Assembly (NCBI RefSeq): GCF_054482595.1
Contig: NZ_CM137008.1
Length of the DNA: 64,000 nucleotides
Strand: one strand, 5' to 3'
Position numbers and translations under genes: made by a program. Positions within the stretch are counted from its first letter, which is position 1, and each line of letters begins with the position of its first letter. The notes beneath the pieces are model-generated. The model was given only the letters and a program-made list of their open reading frames with translations, did not search any database and was not told the origin of the DNA. Positions 7,032 to 41,768 of this stretch are shown one piece after another.

Positions 7032-8684
<1,653 letters not shown>

Positions 8685-14545: not shown

Positions 14546-14883
14546 TTAAACATTTATAAGCGTTATAAATGGGTGGAACCTGTAAAGACTTCTACTCATT
14601 TATATTCTTTGTCGTCTCTGAAAAACCTCCATTTTGCCCATCCTGAACTAATCATTATCATTCTCTACAAATTCTGTGGCGTTAATTTTTCGCTGGAGTG
14701 AAAATTATTGCGGTAAAGTTTGGTAGATTTTAGTTTGTATAGAGTTATTTTAAATATTTACCTTTTTAATCAATTGGTTAAGTGCTCTTTAACATAATGG
14801 ATGTGTTGTTTGTGTGATACTGTAAAGTTGGTAGATTGTGACTGGCTTAAAAAATCATTAATTAATAATAGGTTATGTTTAGA
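14546..14883 (+). promoter_or_regulatory. AT-rich CRISPR leader for array A
   Basis: AT-rich segment ending ...ctggcttaaaaaatcattaattaataataggttatgtttaga immediately before first repeat; same ttaga junction as the cas2-proximal leader. Confidence 0.75.
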
Positions 14884-15339
14884 GAGTTCCCCGCGCCAGC
14901 GGGGATAAACCGGCCTGGCGATTTCTCGTCAGGCCTTGCGGTGTGAGTTCCCCGCGCCAGCGGGGATAAACCGTCAGTAAAGCGGCGCCCACTGATATCG
15001 GATTAGAGTTCCCCGCGCCAGCGGGGATAAACCGAGGGGCAGGGAGTGACGCTGGAGCAGGCGATCGAGTTCCCCGCGCCAGCGGGGATAAACCGGGAAA
15101 TTAGGCAAATGTGAACACGGCGGCCCCGAGTTCCCCGCGCCAGCGGGGATAAACCGCCAGTATTTTGTCGTGGATTGCGGGATCACCAGAGTTCCCCGCG
15201 CCAGCGGGGATAAACCGTTGAGTTTGTTCGTAACAACGCGGGTCATCTGGAGTTCCCCGCGGCAGCGGGGATAAACCGGGTACAAAAGAGGCCCCATTCT
15301 GGCAGGGCTCAAGTTCCCCGCGCCAGTGGGGATAAACCA
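14884..15339 (+). CRISPR. Type I-E CRISPR array A: 8 repeats, 7 spacers of 32 nt
   Basis: Repeat gagttccccgcgccagcggggataaaccg at 14884, 14945, 15006, 15067, 15128, 15189, 15250 (c13g variant), 15311 (degenerate terminal); exact 61-bp period. Confidence 0.97.
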
Positions 15340-15793: not shown

Positions 15794-15932
15794 ATATTCC
15801 TTGTAAAAACAGGGATAAACCGAACTAGTTAAAGTTTTTATTATGTTCCCTGCATCAGCGGGGATAAACCGGACTTGTTATCATTTTTTAAGTTGTCGAA
15901 CTTATGTTCCCCGCGTCAGCGGGGATAACCAT
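15794..15932 (+). CRISPR. Decayed CRISPR remnant (3 degenerate repeats)
   Basis: Degenerate repeats at about 15794, 15843 (atgttccctgcatcagcggggataaaccg) and 15904 (atgttccccgcgtcagcggggataaccat); spacers 20 and 32 nt. Confidence 0.7.
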
Positions 15933-31830: not shown

Positions 31831-32130
31831 CGAGCAGCATTCCTGATTTTAAACGTGAACGCCGCTGGAAGAATTATCAGGTATAGAATGGCGTCGGGTG
31901 CTTGAGGCTGTCTGGCGTTAAGCATTCGCGAGGTTCCAGATGGACAAAAGCCCCAGGCGATATTTCTATCAACCTGAGGCTCGCGTTCGAACGTAGCAAT
32001 TCGGATGTTAGTCTCTTCTTTGCAGGGAGGCAAGACATGTGTATATCACTGTAATTCGATATTTATGAGCAGCATCGAAAAATAGCCCGCTGATATCATC
32101 GATAATACTAAAAAAACAGGGAGGCTATTA

Positions 32131-34797
32131 ATGGAACCTTTTAAATATATATGCCATTACTGGGGAAAATCCTCAAAAAGCCTGACGAAAGGAAATGATA
32201 TTCATCTGTTAATTTATCATTGCCTTGATGTTGCTGCTGTTGCAGATTGCTGGTGGGATCAATCAGTCGTACTGCAAAATACTTTTTGCCGAAATGAAAT
32301 GCTATCAAAACAGAGGGTGAAGGCCTGGCTGTTATTTTTCATTGCTCTTCATGATATTGGAAAGTTTGATATACGATTCCAATATAAATCAGCAGAAAGT
32401 TGGCTGAAATTAAATCCTGCAACGCCATCACTTAATGGTCCATCAACACAAATGTGCCGTAAATTTAATCATGGTGCAGCCGGTCTGTATTGGTTTAACC
32501 AGGATTCACTTTCAGAGCAATCTCCCGGGGATTTTTTCAGTTTTTTTGATGCCGCTCCTCATCCTTATGAGTCCTGGTTTCCATGGGTAGAGGCCGTTAC
32601 AGGACATCATGGTTTTATATTACATTCCCAGGATCAAGATAAGTCGCGTTGGGAAATGCCAGCTTCTCTGGCATCTTATGCTGCGCAAGATAAACAGGCT
32701 CGTGAGGAGTGGATATCTGTACTCGAAGCATTATTTTTAACGCCAGCCGGGTTATCTATAAACGATATACCACCTGATTGTTCATCACTGTTAGCAGGTT
32801 TTTGCTCGCTTGCTGACTGGTTAGGTTCCTGGACCACAACGGATACCTTTCTTTTCAAAGAAGATGCACCTTCAGGAATACAAGCGCTAAGAACATATTT
32901 TCAGGATAGACAGCAGGATGCGTGTCGGGTACTGGCGCTGAGTGGCCTTGTATCAAATAAGCGTCGTTATGACGGTGTACATGCCTTACTGGACAATGGC
33001 TATCAACCAAGACAATTACAGGTGTTGGTCGATGCTCTTCCTACAGCTCCCGGGCTGACGGTGATTGAGGCACCTACGGGATCAGGTAAAACCGAAACAG
33101 CGCTGGCCTATGCCTGGAAACTTATTGACCAACAACTTGCGGAGAGTGTTATTTTTGCCCTCCCTACACAAGCTACTGCAAATACAATGCTCAGCAGAAT
33201 GGAAGCGAACGCGAGCCGTTTATTTACCTCCCCAAATCTTATTCTTGCTCATGGTAATTCACGTTTTAACCACCTTTTTCAATCAATAAAATCACGCGCA
33301 TTTACTGAGCAGGGGCAAGAAGAAGCGTGGGTTCAGTGTTGTCAGTGGTTGTCACAAAGCAATAAGAAAGTGTTTCTTGGGCAAATCGGCGTTTGCACTA
33401 TTGATCAGGTGTTGATATCGGTATTGCCAGTTAAACACCGCTTTATCCGTGGTTTGGGAATTGGTCGAAGTGTTTTAATTGTTGATGAAGTTCATGCTTA
33501 CGACACCTATATGAACGGCTTGCTGGAGGCAGTGCTCAAGGCTCAGGCTGATGTGGGAGGGAGTGTTATTCTTCTTTCCGCAACCCTACCAATGAAACAA
33601 AAACAGAAACTTCTGGATACTTATGGTCTGCATACAGATCCAGTGGAAAATAACTCCGCATATCCACTTATTAACTGGCGAGGTGTGAATGGTGCGCAAC
33701 GTTTTGATCTGCCAGCTCATCCAGAACAACTCCCGCCCCGCTTTTCGATTCAGCCAGAACCTATTTATTTAGCTGACATGTTACCTGACCTTACGATGTT
33801 AGAGCGAATGATCGCAGCGGCAAACGCGGGTGCACAAGTCTGCCTCATTTGCAATTTGGTTGACGTTGCACAACTATGCTTCCAACGGCTAAAGGAACTA
33901 AATGACACGCAAGTAGATATAGATTTGTTTCATGCGCGCTTTACGCTGAACGATCGTCGTGAAAAAGAGAATCGTGTCATTAGCAATTTCGGAAAAAATG
34001 GGGAGCGAAATGTTGGACGAATACTTGTCGCCACCCAGGTCGTGGAACAATCACTCGATGTAGATTTTGATTGGTTAATTACCCAGCATTGTCCCGCTGA
34101 TTTGCTTTTCCAACGATTAGGCCGTTTACATCGCCATCATCGTAAATATCGTCCCGCCGGTTTTGAGATTCCTCTGGCAACCGTTTTGCTGCCTGATGGC
34201 GAAGGTTACGGACGACATGAGCATATTTATAGCAACGTTAGAGTCATGTGGCGGACGCAGCAACATATTGAGGAACTTAATGGAGCATCCTTATTTTTCC
34301 CTGATGCCTACCGGCAATGGCTGGATAGCATTTACGATGATGCTGAAATGGATGAGCCAGAATGGGTCATCAAAGGCATGGATAAGTTTGAAAGCGCTGA
34401 GTGTGAAAAGAGGTTCAAGGCTCGCAAGGTTCTGCAGTGGGCTGAAGAATATAGTTTGCAGGATAACGATGAAACCATTCTTGCGGTAACGAGGGATGGG
34501 GAAATGAGCCTGCCATTATTGCCTTATGTACAAACGTCTTCAGGTAAACAACTGCTCGATGGCCAGGTCTACGAGGACCTAAGTCATGAACAGCAGTATG
34601 AGGCTTTAGCACTTAATCGCGTCAATGTGCCATTTACCTGGAAACGTAGTTTTTCTGAAGTAGTCGATGAAGATGGGTTACTTTGGCTGGAAGGAAGGCA
34701 GAATCAGGATGGATGGATCTGGCAGGGTAACAGTATTGTTATTACCTACACTCGGGATGAAGGGATGACCAGAGTCATCCCTGCAAATCCCAAATAA
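32131..34797 (+). CDS. cas3: Cas3 helicase-nuclease (type I-E)
   Basis: 888 aa ORF MEPFKYICHYWGKSS; HD motif region (HDIGKF), Walker A APTGSGKT, DEVH box (VLIVDEVHAYD). Confidence 0.96.
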   Translation: MEPFKYICHYWGKSSKSLTKGNDIHLLIYHCLDVAAVADCWWDQSVVLQNTFCRNEMLSKQRVKAWLLFFIALHDIGKFDIRFQYKSAESWLKLNPATPSLNGPSTQMCRKFNHGAAGLYWFNQDSLSEQSPGDFFSFFDAAPHPYESWFPWVEAVTGHHGFILHSQDQDKSRWEMPASLASYAAQDKQAREEWISVLEALFLTPAGLSINDIPPDCSSLLAGFCSLADWLGSWTTTDTFLFKEDAPSGIQALRTYFQDRQQDACRVLALSGLVSNKRRYDGVHALLDNGYQPRQLQVLVDALPTAPGLTVIEAPTGSGKTETALAYAWKLIDQQLAESVIFALPTQATANTMLSRMEANASRLFTSPNLILAHGNSRFNHLFQSIKSRAFTEQGQEEAWVQCCQWLSQSNKKVFLGQIGVCTIDQVLISVLPVKHRFIRGLGIGRSVLIVDEVHAYDTYMNGLLEAVLKAQADVGGSVILLSATLPMKQKQKLLDTYGLHTDPVENNSAYPLINWRGVNGAQRFDLPAHPEQLPPRFSIQPEPIYLADMLPDLTMLERMIAAANAGAQVCLICNLVDVAQLCFQRLKELNDTQVDIDLFHARFTLNDRREKENRVISNFGKNGERNVGRILVATQVVEQSLDVDFDWLITQHCPADLLFQRLGRLHRHHRKYRPAGFEIPLATVLLPDGEGYGRHEHIYSNVRVMWRTQQHIEELNGASLFFPDAYRQWLDSIYDDAEMDEPEWVIKGMDKFESAECEKRFKARKVLQWAEEYSLQDNDETILAVTRDGEMSLPLLPYVQTSSGKQLLDGQVYEDLSHEQQYEALALNRVNVPFTWKRSFSEVVDEDGLLWLEGRQNQDGWIWQGNSIVITYTRDEGMTRVIPANPK

Positions 34798-34840
34798 CTT
34801 CGGGAATGATTGGTATCAATGACGATAACAAGACCAATAA

Positions 34841-34869
34841 CGGTTTATCCCTACTTAAGTAGGGAAGGT
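34841..34869 (-). repeat. Orphan degenerate CRISPR repeat-like hairpin, antisense to the arrays
   Basis: Plus strand cggtttatccctacttaagtagggaaggt versus repeat reverse complement cggtttatccccgctggcgcggggaactc: 19/29 identical including first 11 nt; hairpin kept by compensatory pairs. Confidence 0.6.
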
Positions 34870-35211
34870 GCACAATGTACATCTTCTTTTAATTTCCCGG
34901 TATGAGATTTTATATTCGCAGTATGAATATTTTATGTAATAAAATTTATGGTAATTATTATAACTAAAAGTTTCTTTGATAATAAAACGAATAACTTGCA
35001 GATTTGAAATGCATGCATTATTGTCTTTAAACAATTCAACACATCTTAATATATGTATAGGTTAATTGTATTAAACCAATGAATATATTTTTGCAGTGAA
35101 TGTGATTATTGAATTAATTACGCCGTATTTTTTCTTTGTTTTTACCGATAACGGAAGTGTGCCGACGTATAGAAATGCAGGAGAAATGTCGGAGCATATG
35201 AAGGAGAACAA
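34870..35211 (+). promoter_or_regulatory. AT-rich cas3-cse1 intergenic region; Pcas promoter for Cascade operon (H-NS/LeuO-controlled in K-12)
   Basis: Visibly AT-rich block between cas3 stop and cse1 start; role assigned from K-12 literature, promoter elements not mapped here. Confidence 0.55.
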
Positions 35212-36720
35212 ATGAATTTGCTTATTGATAACTGGATCCCTGTACGCCCGCGAAACGGGGGGAAAGTCCAAATCATAAATCTGCAATCGCTATACTGCAG
35301 TAGAGATCAGTGGCGATTAAGTTTGCCCCGTGACGATATGGAACTGGCCGCTTTAGCACTGCTGGTTTGCATTGGGCAAATTATCGACCCGGCAAAAGAT
35401 GACGTTGAATTTCGACATCGCATAATGAATCCGTTCACTGAAGATGGGTTTCAACAACTCATCGCGCCGTGGATAGATATGTTCTACCTTAATCACGCAG
35501 AACATCCCTTTATGCAGACCAAAGGTGTCAAAGCAAATGATGTGACTCCAATGGAAAAACTGTTGGCAGGGGTAAGCGGCGCGACGAATTGTGCTTTTGT
35601 CAATCAACCGGGTCAGGGTGAAGCATTATGTGGTGGATGCACTGCGATTGCGTTATTCAACCAGGCGAATCAGGCACCTGGTTTTGGTGGTGGCTTTAAA
35701 AGTGGTTTACGTGGAGGAACACCTATAACCACCTTCGTACGTGGGATCGATCTTCGCTCGACGGTGTTACTCAATGTCCTCACAATACCTCGTCTTCAAA
35801 AACAATTTCCCAATGAATCACATACGGAAAACCAACCTACCTGGGTTAAGCCTGTCAAACCCAATGAATCTGTGCCAGCTTCGTCAATTGGCTTTGTCCG
35901 CGGCTTATTCTGGCAACCAGCGCATATTGAATTATGCGACCCCATTGGGATTGGAAAATGTTCTTGCTGTGGGCAGGAAAGCAATTTGCGTTATACCGGT
36001 TTTCTTAAGGAAAAATTTACCTTTACAGTTAATGGGCTATGGCCCCATCCGCATTCCCCTTGTCTGGTAACAGTCAAGAAAGGGGAGGTTGAGGAAAAAT
36101 TTCTTGCTTTCACCACCTCCGCACCATCATGGACACAAATCAGCCGAGTTGTGGTAGATAAGATTATTCAAAATGAAAATGGAAATCGCGTGGCGGCGGT
36201 TGTGAATCAATTCAGAAATATTGCGCCGCAAAGTCCTCTTGAATTGATTATGGGGGGATATCGTAATAATCAAGCATCTATTCTTGAACGGCGTCATGAT
36301 GTGTTGATGTTTAATCAGGGGTGGCAACAATACGGCAATGTGATAAACGAAATAGTGACTGTTGGTTTGGGATATAAAACAGCCTTACGCAAGGCGTTAT
36401 ATACCTTTGCAGAAGGGTTTAAAAATAAAGACTTCAAAGGGGCCGGAGTTTCTGTTCATGAGACTGCAGAAAGGCATTTCTATCGACAGAGTGAATTATT
36501 AATTCCCGATGTACTGGCGAATATTAATTTTTCCCAGGCTGATGAGGTAATAGCTGATTTACGAGACAAACTTCATCAATTGTGTGAAATGCTATTTAAT
36601 CAATCTGTAGCTCCCTATGCACATCATCCTAAATTAATAAACACATTAGCGCTTGCCCGCGCCACGCTATACAAACATTTACGGGAGTTAAAACCGCAAG
36701 GAGGGCCATCAAATGGCTGA
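35212..36720 (+). CDS. casA: Cse1 (CasA, Cas8e) Cascade large subunit
   Basis: 502 aa ORF MNLLIDNWIPVRPRNGGKVQIINLQSLY. Confidence 0.95.
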   Translation: MNLLIDNWIPVRPRNGGKVQIINLQSLYCSRDQWRLSLPRDDMELAALALLVCIGQIIDPAKDDVEFRHRIMNPFTEDGFQQLIAPWIDMFYLNHAEHPFMQTKGVKANDVTPMEKLLAGVSGATNCAFVNQPGQGEALCGGCTAIALFNQANQAPGFGGGFKSGLRGGTPITTFVRGIDLRSTVLLNVLTIPRLQKQFPNESHTENQPTWVKPVKPNESVPASSIGFVRGLFWQPAHIELCDPIGIGKCSCCGQESNLRYTGFLKEKFTFTVNGLWPHPHSPCLVTVKKGEVEEKFLAFTTSAPSWTQISRVVVDKIIQNENGNRVAAVVNQFRNIAPQSPLELIMGGYRNNQASILERRHDVLMFNQGWQQYGNVINEIVTVGLGYKTALRKALYTFAEGFKNKDFKGAGVSVHETAERHFYRQSELLIPDVLANINFSQADEVIADLRDKLHQLCEMLFNQSVAPYAHHPKLINTLALARATLYKHLRELKPQGGPSNG

Positions 36721-37195
36721 TGAAATTGATGCAATGGCTTTATATCGAGCCTGGCAACAACTGGATAATGGAGCATGTGCGCAAATTAGACGTGTTTCAG
36801 AACCTGATGAATTACGCGATATCCCTGCGTTTTATAGGCTGGTGCAACCTTTTGGTTGGGAAAACCCACGTCACCAGCAGGCTCTTTTGCGCATGGTGTT
36901 TTGCCTGAGCGCAGGAAAGAATGTCATCCGACATCAGGACAAAAAACCGGAGCAAACAACAGGTATCTCGTTGGGAAGAGCTTTAGCCAATAGTGGAAGA
37001 ATTAACGAGCGCCGTATCTTTCAATTAATTCGGGCTGACAGAACAGCCGATATGGTCCAGTTACGTCGATTACTTACTCACGCCGAACCCGTACTTGACT
37101 GGCCATTAATGGCCAGGATGTTGACCTGGTGGGGAAAGCGCGAACGCCAGCAACTTCTGGAAGATTTTGTATTGACCACAAACAAAAATGCGTAA
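36713..37195 (+). CDS. casB: Cse2 (CasB) Cascade small subunit
   Basis: 160 aa ORF MADEIDAMALYRAWQQLDNG; 8-nt overlap with casA. Confidence 0.95.
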   Translation: MADEIDAMALYRAWQQLDNGACAQIRRVSEPDELRDIPAFYRLVQPFGWENPRHQQALLRMVFCLSAGKNVIRHQDKKPEQTTGISLGRALANSGRINERRIFQLIRADRTADMVQLRRLLTHAEPVLDWPLMARMLTWWGKRERQQLLEDFVLTTNKNA

Positions 37196-37207
37196 GGAAA
37201 CCTTTCT

Positions 37208-38299
37208 ATGTCTAACTTTATCAATATTCATGTTCTGATCTCTCACAGCCCTTCATGTCTGAACCGCGACGATATGAACATGCAGAAAGACGCTATTTTC
37301 GGCGGGAAAAGACGAGTAAGAATTTCAAGTCAAAGCCTTAAACGTGCGATGCGTAAAAGTGATTATTACGCACAAAATATTGGTGAATCCAGTCTCAGAA
37401 CAATTCATCTTGCACAATTACGTGATGTTCTTCGGCAAAAACTTGGTGAACGTTTTGACCAAAAAATCATCGATAAGACATTAGCGCTGCTCTCCGGTAA
37501 ATCAGTTGATGAAGCCGAAAAGATTTCTGCCGATGCGGTTACTCCCTGGGTTGTGGGAGAAATAGCCTGGTTCTGTGAGCAGGTTGCAAAAGCAGAGGCT
37601 GATAATCTGGATGATAAAAAGCTGCTCAAAGTTCTTAAGGAAGATATTGCCGCCATACGTGTGGATTTACAGCAGGGTGTTGATATTGCGCTTAGTGGAA
37701 GAATGGCAACCAGCGGCATGATGAGTGAGTTGGGAAAAGTTGATGGTGCAATGTCCATTGCGCATGCGATCACTACTCATCAGGTTGATTCTGATATTGA
37801 CTGGTTCACCGCTGTAGATGATTTACAGGAACAAGGTTCTGCACATCTGGGAACTCAGGAATTTTCATCGGGTGTTTTTTATCGTTATGCCAACATTAAC
37901 CTCGCTCAACTTCAGGAAAATTTAGGTGGTGCCTCCAGGGAGCAGGCTCTGGAAATTGCAACCCATGTTGTTCATATGCTGGCAACAGAGGTCCCTGGAG
38001 CAAAACAGCGTACTTATGCCGCTTTTAACCCTGCGGATATGGTAATGGTTAATTTCTCCGATATGCCACTTTCTATGGCAAATGCTTTTGAAAAAGCGGT
38101 TAAAGCGAAAGATGGCTTTTTGCAACCGTCTATACAGGCGTTTAATCAATATTGGGATCGCGTTGCCAATGGATATGGTCTGAACGGAGCTGCTGCGCAA
38201 TTCAGCTTATCTGATGTAGACCCAATTACTGCTCAAGTTAAACAAATGCCTACTTTAGAACAGTTAAAATCCTGGGTTCGTAATAATGGCGAGGCGTGA
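37208..38299 (+). CDS. casC: Cas7e (CasC) Cascade backbone subunit
   Basis: 363 aa [36 protein letters not shown]. Confidence 0.95.
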
Positions 38300-38301
38300 A
38301 C

Positions 38302-38976
38302 ATGAGATCTTATTTGATCTTGCGGCTTGCTGGGCCAATGCAAGCCTGGGGGCAGCCGACCTTTGAAGGAACGCGACCTACCGGAAGATTTCCGACCCGA
38401 AGCGGGTTATTAGGGCTACTCGGGGCTTGTCTTGGGATCCAACGTGATGATACTTCTTCATTACAGGCGTTATCAGAGAGTGTGCAATTTGCAGTGCGCT
38501 GCGATGAACTCATTCTTGACGATCGTCGTGTGTCTGTAACGGGGTTGCGTGATTACCATACAGTCCTTGGAGCGCGAGAAGATTACCGTGGTTTGAAAAG
38601 TCATGAAACGATTCAAACATGGCGCGAATATTTATGTGATGCCTCCTTTACCGTCGCTCTCTGGTTAACACCCCATGCAACGATGGTTATCTCAGAACTT
38701 GAAAAAGCAGTATTAAAGCCTCGGTATACACCCTACCTGGGGCGGAGAAGTTGCCCACTAACACACCCGCTTTTTTTGGGGACATGTCAGGCATCGGATC
38801 CTCAGAAGGCGCTATTAAATTATGAGCCCGTTGGCGGCGATATATATAGTGAGGAATCAGTTACAGGGCATCATTTAAAATTTACGGCGCGCGACGAACC
38901 GATGATCACCTTACCTCGACAATTTGCTTCCCGAGAATGGTATGTGATTAAAGGAGGTATGGATGTATCTCAGTAA
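38302..38976 (+). CDS. casD: Cas5e (CasD)
   Basis: ATG at 38302 (MRSYLILRLAGPMQAWGQPTFEG), 224 aa; ORF-track start 38296 is GTG two codons upstream. Confidence 0.93.
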   Translation: MRSYLILRLAGPMQAWGQPTFEGTRPTGRFPTRSGLLGLLGACLGIQRDDTSSLQALSESVQFAVRCDELILDDRRVSVTGLRDYHTVLGAREDYRGLKSHETIQTWREYLCDASFTVALWLTPHATMVISELEKAVLKPRYTPYLGRRSCPLTHPLFLGTCQASDPQKALLNYEPVGGDIYSEESVTGHHLKFTARDEPMITLPRQFASREWYVIKGGMDVSQ

Positions 38977-39562
38977 AGTCATCATTGCCAGGGCCTGGAG
39001 CAGGGATCTTTACCAACTTCACCAGGGATTATGGCATTTATTTCCAAACAGACCGGATGCTGCTCGTGATTTTCTTTTTCATGTTGAGAAGCGAAACACA
39101 CCAGAAGGCTGTCATGTTTTATTGCAGTCAGCGCAAATGCCTGTTTCAACTGCCGTTGCGACAGTCATTAAAACTAAACAGGTTGAATTTCAACTTCAGG
39201 TTGGTGTTCCACTCTATTTTCGGCTTCGGGCAAATCCGATCAAAACTATTCTCGACAATCAAAAGCGCCTGGACAGTAAAGGGAATATTAAACGCTGTCG
39301 GGTTCCGTTAATAAAAGAAGCAGAACAAATCGCGTGGTTGCAACGTAAATTGGGCAATGCGGCGCGCGTTGAAGATGTGCATCCCATATCGGAACGGCCA
39401 CAGTATTTTTCTGGTGATGGTAAAAGTGGAAAGATCCAAACGGTTTGCTTTGAAGGTGTGCTCACCATCAACGACGCGCCAGCGTTAATAGATCTTGTAC
39501 AGCAAGGTATTGGGCCAGCTAAATCGATGGGATGTGGCTTGCTATCTTTGGCTCCACTGTGA
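38963..39562 (+). CDS. casE: Cas6e (CasE) crRNA endoribonuclease
   Basis: 199 aa ORF MYLSKVIIARAWSRDLYQLHQGLWHLF; overlaps casD 3' end. Confidence 0.95.
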   Translation: MYLSKVIIARAWSRDLYQLHQGLWHLFPNRPDAARDFLFHVEKRNTPEGCHVLLQSAQMPVSTAVATVIKTKQVEFQLQVGVPLYFRLRANPIKTILDNQKRLDSKGNIKRCRVPLIKEAEQIAWLQRKLGNAARVEDVHPISERPQYFSGDGKSGKIQTVCFEGVLTINDAPALIDLVQQGIGPAKSMGCGLLSLAPL

Positions 39563-39577
39563 TTGAGGTGTAATAAA

Positions 39578-40780
<1,203 letters not shown>

Positions 40781-40885
40781 AAACAAAGAATTAGCTGATC
40801 TTTAATAATAAGGAAATGTTACATTAAGGTTGGTGGGTTGTTTTTATGGGAAAAAATGCTTTCAGAACAAATGTATACTTTTAGA
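40781..40885 (+). promoter_or_regulatory. CRISPR leader for array B
   Basis: AT-rich, ends ...gggaaaaaatgctttcagaacaaatgtatacttttaga directly before first repeat. Confidence 0.8.
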
Positions 40886-41768
40886 GAGTTCCCCGCGCCA
40901 GCGGGGATAAACCGCATTTAATGCAAAACTAATTGCACAATAAATAGAGTTCCCCGCGCCAGCGGGGATAAACCGGCGATAAACCTCCTCATCGCTGATA
41001 TCAATAAGAGTTCCCCGCGCCAGCGGGGATAAACCGATAAAGGCTCGGCGGCGCAAAAAATGGCACGGGAGTTCCCCGCGCCAGCGGGGATAAACCGCTC
41101 TCGTTGTTGTGCCTCAGTACCGGTGCGCGGAGTTCCCCGCGCCAGCGGGGATAAACCGCACACCGGTGCGACGGGAAACGTTCAGCGGCCGAGTTCCCCG
41201 CGCCAGCGGGGATAAACCGGGAATAGTTAATTTCGGTGATGGCTGCGTAAAGAGTTCCCCGCGGCAGCGGGGATAAACCGAGTAATGCTGCGTTGAGATG
41301 ACCAGGCGGGCTGAGTTCCCCGCGGCAGCGGGGATAAACCGTTGACGCCAGCGGCGACCCGCGCCACGGGCTTGAGTTCCCCGCGCCAGCGGGGATAAAC
41401 CGTAGCCAGACGTACTCGCAATCTGTCGGCGGTCGAGTTCCCCGCGCCAGCGGGGATAAACCACCAGTTCTCCGTATTCTGTGGTTATCGTTGCTGAGTT
41501 CCCCGCGCCAGCGGGGATAAACCGGGAGTTCAGACATAGGTGGAATGATGGACTACGAGTTCCCCGCGTTAGCGGGGATAAACCGCCCGGTAGCCAGGTT
41601 TGCAACGCCTGAACCGAGAGTTCCCCGCGCCAGCAGGGATAAACCGGCAACGACGGTGAGATTTCACGCCTGACGCTGGTGTTCCCCGCGCCAGCGGGGA
41701 TAAACCGGGCGCACTGGATGCGATGATGGATATCACTGAGAATTCCCCGCCCCTGCGGTAGAACACCC
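40886..41768 (+). CRISPR. Type I-E CRISPR array B: 15 repeats, 14 spacers of 32 nt
   Basis: Repeats every 61 bp from 40886 to 41740; variants at repeats 7-8 (c13g), 10 (3' a), 12 (cc to tt), 13 (g to a), 14 (a2t); terminal repeat 41740-41768 degenerate. Confidence 0.97.

Follow-up and report, generated by a model that had tools for sequence, protein, structure and literature searches.

A recurrent loop-position variant of the type I-E CRISPR repeat in the two arrays of an Escherichia coli lineage

We analyzed a C-to-G change at position 13 of the CRISPR repeat (c13g) that is present in both arrays (A and B) of a 64,000-nucleotide stretch of Escherichia coli DNA, referred to here as the window. 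We consider it likely that c13g is a neutral substitution that recurs where the type I-E repeat is least constrained, with an old, in-place copy in array A and a separate origin, followed by a single copying, in array B. In array A, the change would be an old mutation that occurred in place, upstream of the oldest spacer, and was inherited together with changes of the terminal repeat by several lineages. In array B, a separate and younger mutation would have struck the repeat that then lay next to the leader, and this variant would have been copied once, through the repeat duplication carried out by Cas1-Cas2 upon integration of spacer 7B. The resulting block of two variant repeats and spacers 7B and 8B (R*-S7B-R*-S8B) would then have come to lie beneath consensus repeats, likely via recombination at repeats between diverged sister arrays, that is, two arrays derived from a common ancestor with spacer 9B first, each with its own spacers added since; alternatively, the block would have been deleted in the lineage of strain 33F4. 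After the frameshift of cas1, spacer acquisition would have stopped, leaving only loss and duplication of repeat-spacer units.

Arrays, cas genes and variant repeats of the window

The window corresponds to the cysH-cas-iap region of E. coli. Gene names and array positions were taken from the RefSeq annotation of a 100%-identical record, NZ_AP023197 (strain TUM18780), with coordinates shifted by +11392. Repeats were located by scanning for the 29-nt consensus with up to 3 mismatches allowed, and shuffled sequence was scanned for comparison; this mismatch-tolerant scan recovered 22 repeats with an exact 61-nt spacing in the window and 0 in the shuffles. Both arrays consist of 29-nt direct repeats and 32-nt spacers, the format of type I-E, and, according to the annotation of the identical record, they lie next to a type I-E cas operon and occupy the two canonical sites (cas2-iap and queE-ygcE). 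No match to a CRISPR repeat family was returned by Rfam across the window. The arrays, leaders, cas genes, variant repeats and spacers whose coordinates are given below are all on the plus strand.

Array A, the CRISPR II array of E. coli (14884..15339), lies between queE/ygcF and ygcE and comprises 8 repeats and 7 spacers. It is preceded by an AT-rich leader (about 14750-14883) and ends in a degenerate terminal repeat (15311..15339) with 3 mismatches (A1, T17 and A29). Array B, the CRISPR I array (cas2-iap; 40886..41768), lies downstream of the cas operon and upstream of iap and comprises 14 repeats plus a degenerate terminal copy, with 14 spacers; the 14 scanned repeats span 40886-41707, and the degenerate terminal copy is found near 41740. 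Its leader (40781..40885) is seen in the sequence to be AT-rich and is identical in 33F4. A remnant mini-array of two degenerate repeats and one spacer is located about 500 nt downstream of array A (15843-15932). Its two repeats both have T at position 13 and deviate from the consensus by 5 and 6 mismatches; its spacer, together with near-identical repeats, is also found in strains 104, EC974 and Res13-Sevr-PER07-33.

The type I-E cas operon (32131..40780) encodes cas3, casA, casB, cas7e, cas5e, cas6e, cas1e and cas2e; the annotation of the identical record places cas6e at 38963-39562 and cas2e at 40496-40780. In the window, a frameshift splits the cas1e gene (39578-40494) into two ORFs that overlap (39563-40051 and 40048-40494). 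The annotations read for five records of the clade (THO-010, XH990, Santai, GF66.1 and TUM18780) also mark cas1e as frameshifted, but the gene is intact in 33F4. Judging by this frameshift, the window lineage probably has a dead adaptation module. The repeat, the 61-nt period, the two sites, the orientation and the cas gene order are the same as in the CRISPR I and CRISPR II arrays of the E. coli K-12 type, from which the window lineage differs in its frameshifted cas1e and in its leader-proximal spacers, which are lineage-specific. Between cysH and cas3, Rfam reported a match to the sok antitoxin RNA (RF01794, 97.5 bits) at 31896-32051.

The c13g repeat (GAGTTCCCCGCGGCAGCGGGGATAAACCG, C13 to G) is found in exactly three repeats of the window, starting at 15250, 41252 and 41313. 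The first-pass annotation had placed it at repeat 7 of array A and at repeats 7 and 8 of array B, about 26 kb apart, and our scan bears out both the positions and the distance (26,002 nt between the two sites). The crRNA of spacer 6A receives its 3' hairpin handle from repeat 7 of array A (15250-15278), and the crRNAs of spacers 6B and 7B receive theirs from repeats 7 (41252-41280) and 8 (41313-41341) of array B, respectively. The same annotation had described the neighboring repeats as consensus, which holds for array B (repeats 6 and 9) but not for the downstream neighbor in array A, the degenerate terminal repeat at 15311-15339. An assembly or sequencing artefact was rejected as a source of the variant, as eight independent complete genomes, TUM18780 and seven others, match the window at 100% over both arrays, and the variant block is present in 14. 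By a hand estimate, three identical substitutions among about eight would be expected under uniform random mutation with a probability of roughly 1e-5, so the repetition of c13g needs an explanation, either copying or a favored site.

Recurrence of c13g at the repeat loop

Exact 29-mers of the repeat variants, extended to 30 bases by one N at the end, were searched against 5,426 complete E. coli genomes. In the GAG-type repeat, c13g was found at 132 places in 104 genomes, with three copies in 14 of these genomes and one copy in the other 90; in the GTG-type repeat, it was found at 30 places in 30 genomes. This gives a total of 134 of the 5,426 genomes (about 2.5%). The C-to-T change at the same position of the GAG-type repeat (c13t) is present at 972 places in 231 genomes, and the C-to-A change (c13a) was found in none of the 5,426 genomes (0 places in GAG-type repeats).

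In E. coli, c13g occurs in at least nine spacer contexts across both arrays, and in about 15 contexts overall. Those in CRISPR II are the unit of spacer 7A present in the window, a unit of the strain-104 type, and units on three metagenome contigs that carry an E. coli CRISPR II leader or trailer (L019, L024 and L027). The strain-104 type unit (CTAGG...|R*|GAGCGACC...) is present in 77 genomes, and its repeat always has G. Those in CRISPR I are the pair of array B, one repeat each in strains F3_13_1_3 (the penultimate) and MP1 (number 14 of 17), and a metagenome array (L022) whose oldest spacer is the same as that of array B. Outside E. coli, c13g was found as single repeats in genomes of Enterobacter and Citrobacter, as five adjacent repeats in the interior of an Edaphovirga cremea array, as a run of three on a soil contig, and as at least nine consecutive repeats in another metagenome array (L018). 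In one Enterobacter array, four separate repeats differ from the consensus at position 13, three of them with T and one with G. Most occurrences of c13g are lone repeats inside arrays. Several of these arrays were read by eye, and a per-position tally of variants in the fetched loci was excluded as evidence because the loci had been selected for c13g.

The variant is therefore found beside unrelated spacers in different arrays, strains and species, the distribution expected of homoplasy. The first-pass annotation had suggested shared ancestry for the copies in the two arrays and had named as the refuting observation that the variant be common at many positions across strains; with at least nine contexts in E. 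coli and its presence in three other genera, this is what we observed, and the shared-ancestry reading is not sustained. Taken on these comparisons, c13g appears as a recurrent change at a permissive loop site that has arisen many times.

The metagenome array L018 (OEPS010000726.1, about 7040-7620) begins with a repeat that abuts an apparent ORF, as read by eye, and has no leader. Its older repeats combine G13 with T14 or carry an extra C-to-T change in the stem, and the order of these forms is interleaved.

Folding of the repeat predicts a 7-bp hairpin in which position 13 is the second base of a 4-nt loop (G12 N13 C14 A15), with a minimum free energy of -15.1 kcal/mol and a z-score of about -3.2 to -4.5. 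Replacing C13 by G or T leaves the predicted fold and its energy as they are, and the predicted structure is likewise unchanged in the variant with TT in the loop. Within the repeat, the bases between the inverted repeats have been reported to be the least conserved and to be dispensable for adaptation, with substitutions there cutting adaptation three-fold at most (Goren et al., 2016; PMC5039180). The variability of the type I-E repeat loop is attributed in that work to Kunin (2007), and c13g falls within the same four least-conserved bases. In addition, most of the 3' handle is not required in vitro for either the binding of Cascade or the recognition of targets (PMC4288178). Based on the predicted folds and on this published work with other loop substitutions, c13g would be functionally neutral, and no effect of the change on function is expected.

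The lack of C-to-A changes departs from what a purely neutral site would show under the usual mutation spectrum of E. coli, as C to G recurs at this position. In E. coli, G:C-to-T:A changes usually exceed G:C-to-C:G changes. This absence suggests either selection on the loop or neighbor-templated mutation, in which G13 would be a copy of G12. Template switching at the quasipalindrome was considered as a source of c13g and set aside, since it would also alter position 12 or positions 14-15. The loop changes studied in Goren et al. (2016), and in Kunin (2007) as represented there, are other than c13g, and the skew of E. coli toward G and T with no A is not addressed in that account.

Histories of the variant in arrays A and B

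Spacer 7A (GGTACAAAAGAGGCCCCATTCTGGCAGGGCTC; 15279..15310), the oldest of array A, is present in 83 E. coli genomes. The G13 repeat followed by this spacer (GGTACAAAAG...) and the terminal repeat was found in 45 complete genomes at a match of at least 99%. The repeat upstream of spacer 7A is the consensus form, with C13, in strain EC974, and has G13 in the window, in 33F4 and in Res13-Sevr-PER07-33, in all of which it was read directly. In O145:H28 strains, matching coordinates indicate G13 upstream of spacer 7A with an added A2T change, and a spacer 7A unit with both G13 and A2T was read directly in a metagenome contig (L016). Small differences in the terminal repeat are linked to the C13 or G13 state of the unit.

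The same repeat-spacer unit thus exists with and without c13g, the pattern of homoplasy. Since spacer 7A is seen with both C13 and G13, the change in array A would have been made in place, and it reads as an old point mutation that was subsequently inherited. By the same comparison, it does not appear to be a product of recent acquisition; it is a lone variant repeat, with no adjacent run of the kind left by repeat duplication. The CRISPR II array of Res13-Sevr-PER07-33 (L028, 718-990) has spacers 1A (the newest) and 7A (the oldest, with G13) as in the window, with two different spacers between them. This array appears to be a mosaic, which implies recombination at repeats or a large internal replacement.

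In array B, the two variant repeats, spacer 7B (41281..41312) and spacer 8B (TTGACGCCAGCGGCGACCCGCGCCACGGGCTT; 41342..41373) form a 122-nt block (41252-41373) in the order R7*, S7B, R8*, S8B. Among the 5,426 complete genomes, the arrangement S6B-R*-S7B-R*-S8B is present at full length in 14 only, and spacer 7B, which occupies the CRISPR I site only, was not found outside these 14 genomes. All 14 also carry c13g in array A. Strain 33F4, read directly, has G13 in array A and consensus repeats throughout array B, and genome counts alone give the same distribution for Res13-Sevr-PER07-33 (G13 in array A, none in array B). As 33F4 has the variant in array A and not in array B, and as the pair is limited to 14 genomes, the event in array B would be the younger one, nested inside the array A haplotype.

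The five versions of array B that were read from the clade (the window, Santai, GF66.1, THO-010 and XH990) differ only by deletions and tandem duplications of units. Santai is without S2-S3; GF66.1 has S4 duplicated; THO-010 has S4-S5 duplicated and S9 absent; and XH990 has both S4-S5 and S11-S13 duplicated. Such variation, restricted to the loss and duplication of units, fits the frameshift of cas1e. In the CRISPR I arrays of THO-010, XH990 and GF66.1 (L007, L008 and L010, respectively), the tandem duplications comprise one to three units and carry repeat variants along with them; in XH990, the repeats with TT13-14, A18 and T2 are duplicated. These three trailer-end variants are common to the window and 33F4, the sole array from outside the clade that was read through its trailer end.

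Spacers 1B-5B are specific to the clade, according to a BLAST search of spacers 1B-6B that was swamped by matches to the consensus repeat. No match of spacer 8B to a phage or plasmid was found, and a search of spacers 5B-9B against phage and plasmid collections, at E values up to 1, gave no match, and so no common target; such a target would have suggested a single adaptation episode. Matches of spacer 8B in strains AF39 and GMF054 were rejected as instances of the same unit and taken as independent acquisitions, as they correspond to similar but non-identical spacers in T13-type arrays. Two unrelated strains whose CRISPR I repeats all have T13 carry near-identical counterparts of spacer 8B in that array (L005, 1590-1621; L006, 1588-1619), and the protospacer region of spacer 8B seems to have been sampled independently in those two strains. 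Repeat 10 of array B (41435-41463) ends in A in place of G (…AAACCA), a change that it has in common with 33F4. During acquisition, the last base of the repeat comes from the protospacer side, and this ending may be the record of an off-register acquisition and no mutation.

Origin of the array B pair and rival explanations

In type I-E systems, IHF guides integration to the repeat next to the leader; this repeat is split, both daughters are filled in from its strands, and the new repeat is in this way a copy of the first repeat of its own array. The adjacent run that such a duplication leaves is seen at repeats 7 and 8 of array B. That a first repeat with G13 would be copied faithfully by Cas1-Cas2 has indirect support in the metagenome array with at least nine G13 repeats in succession. 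The best reading of the two array B copies is, in our analysis, a single mutation that would have been copied once at the integration of a spacer, and the two probably derive from one template, that is, from each other. Runs of variant repeats that reach the leader are found in strain 104 (five repeats with A10 and T13) and in 33F4 (two repeats with A27). In array B, repeats 1-6 are consensus and the newer repeats do not all carry the variant, so an extra event is needed, either recombination, reversion or internal integration.

Conserved stretches of repeat variants have been explained by duplication of adjacent repeats at spacer acquisition (Touchon and Rocha, 2010; PMC2886076), and in those stretches, as in array B, adjacent repeats share a point variant within a consensus array. 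Table S6 of the same study includes a Salmonella internal run of three C13-to-T repeats with consensus repeats on the leader side. Array B differs from this run in having G and not T, and two repeats and not three, and c13g is, in contrast to that study, also present as a single copy in the second array of the same genome. The array of Edaphovirga and the published Salmonella run are bounded by consensus repeats on the leader side, as is array B.

The comparison with 33F4 bears directly on the extra event. In the CRISPR I array of this strain, the order is the leader, spacer Sx, spacer 6B, a consensus repeat, and spacer 9B onward; the array is otherwise collinear with that of the window and is missing exactly the 122-nt block R*-S7B-R*-S8B. 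The window and 33F4 do not differ in cas2, in the leader or in any spacer that both have. The block appears, from this alignment, to have its own history of insertion or deletion, and three histories fit it: recombination between sister arrays, two internal integrations, or a deletion in 33F4 combined with reversion or conversion of repeat 6. Mosaic arrays of the kind that recombination at repeats would produce do exist, as the CRISPR II array of Res13-Sevr-PER07-33 illustrates. No array with R* at the leader and spacer 7B was found in the 5,426 genomes or in the metagenome scan. A comparison of the window with 33F4 gave no step in SNP density at array B, and divergence is patchy on both sides of it.

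Three rival explanations of the pair were weighed against a mutation copied once at integration. Under internal, or ectopic, integration, an ancestor with S6B-R-S9B would have received spacer 8B with a copying error, and spacer 7B would then have been inserted at the variant daughter, making R*-S7B-R*-S8B a natural record of the ectopic integration of two spacers between spacers 6B and 9B. The absence from 33F4 of exactly the block bounded by variant repeats speaks for this, as do the identity of cas2, the leader and the shared spacers, from which the two arrays are homologous by descent, and the predicted repeat pattern (G, G, C), which is that of the window and needs no reversion; internal runs bounded by consensus repeats are, moreover, known elsewhere. 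However, two integrations at one internal site run against the IHF-directed, leader-proximal course of integration, the end of spacer 6B is unlike the end of the leader, as judged by eye, and either a deletion in 33F4 or sister-array recombination explains the same data. We regard ectopic integration as improbable as the origin of the pair, and give the same low credence to the block being a natural record of it. If it were true, internal runs of loop variants in enterobacterial arrays generally would trace such events. Less probable still are two independent point mutations in the neighboring repeats 7 and 8, with position 13 as a hotspot. The predominance of isolated single c13g repeats and the Enterobacter array with four separate changes are in keeping with such a hotspot, but a rough count of c13g contexts (about 10) against distinct E. 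coli repeat units (a few thousand) puts the chance of an independent hit on a given neighbor well below 1%, and runs of identical variants are common and are explained by copying.

The remaining rival is the one that the first-pass annotation had put forward, recombination between the arrays or acquisition from a shared variant template; in the form weighed here, G13 of array A would have served as the donor for a very short gene conversion or unequal recombination into array B. Several observations are compatible with such a transfer: c13g is uncommon (about 2.5% of genomes); the two arrays have identical repeats in direct orientation, 26 kb apart; the variant of array A is the more widely spread, hence the older, so that a transfer from A to B is possible; and G13 is present in array A of every one of the 14 genomes that have the array B pair, otherwise a mild coincidence, as the rough chance of the array B event striking a lineage that already had c13g is about 2%, or perhaps 15% if several events are allowed. 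This co-occurrence in one lineage is the sole argument in favor of a link. On the other hand, a comparison of all window spacers found none shared by arrays A and B, and no spacer in common between CRISPR1 and CRISPR2 was reported by Touchon and Rocha (2010; PMC2886076) either. The homology available is only 29 bp long, and the pair would require the conversion of both repeats, or of one repeat followed by its duplication. The variant of array A is at the trailer end and hence cannot template new repeats, and c13g arose without a donor elsewhere, since the genomes of the strain-104 type, F3_13_1_3 and MP1 have a single copy. For these reasons, the proposal of exchange or of a shared template is not supported by the data, and we consider a transfer between the arrays unlikely, on a par with ectopic integration. 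A separate origin in array B, copied once at the integration of spacer 7B, would thus remain our preferred reading of the pair.

On the comparisons made here, c13g appears to be no evidence of exchange between the two arrays, and a repeat variant that is common to two arrays of one genome is not to be read as such. As the first-pass annotation had anticipated, repeat-spacer units marked by c13g can indeed be followed from strain to strain, and repeat variants are useful as lineage markers: the array A unit marks 45 genomes, including 33F4 and O145:H28, and the array B pair marks a clade of 14 genomes. The c13g change is itself an ordinary, previously described polymorphism of CRISPR arrays at a permissive position of the repeat loop.
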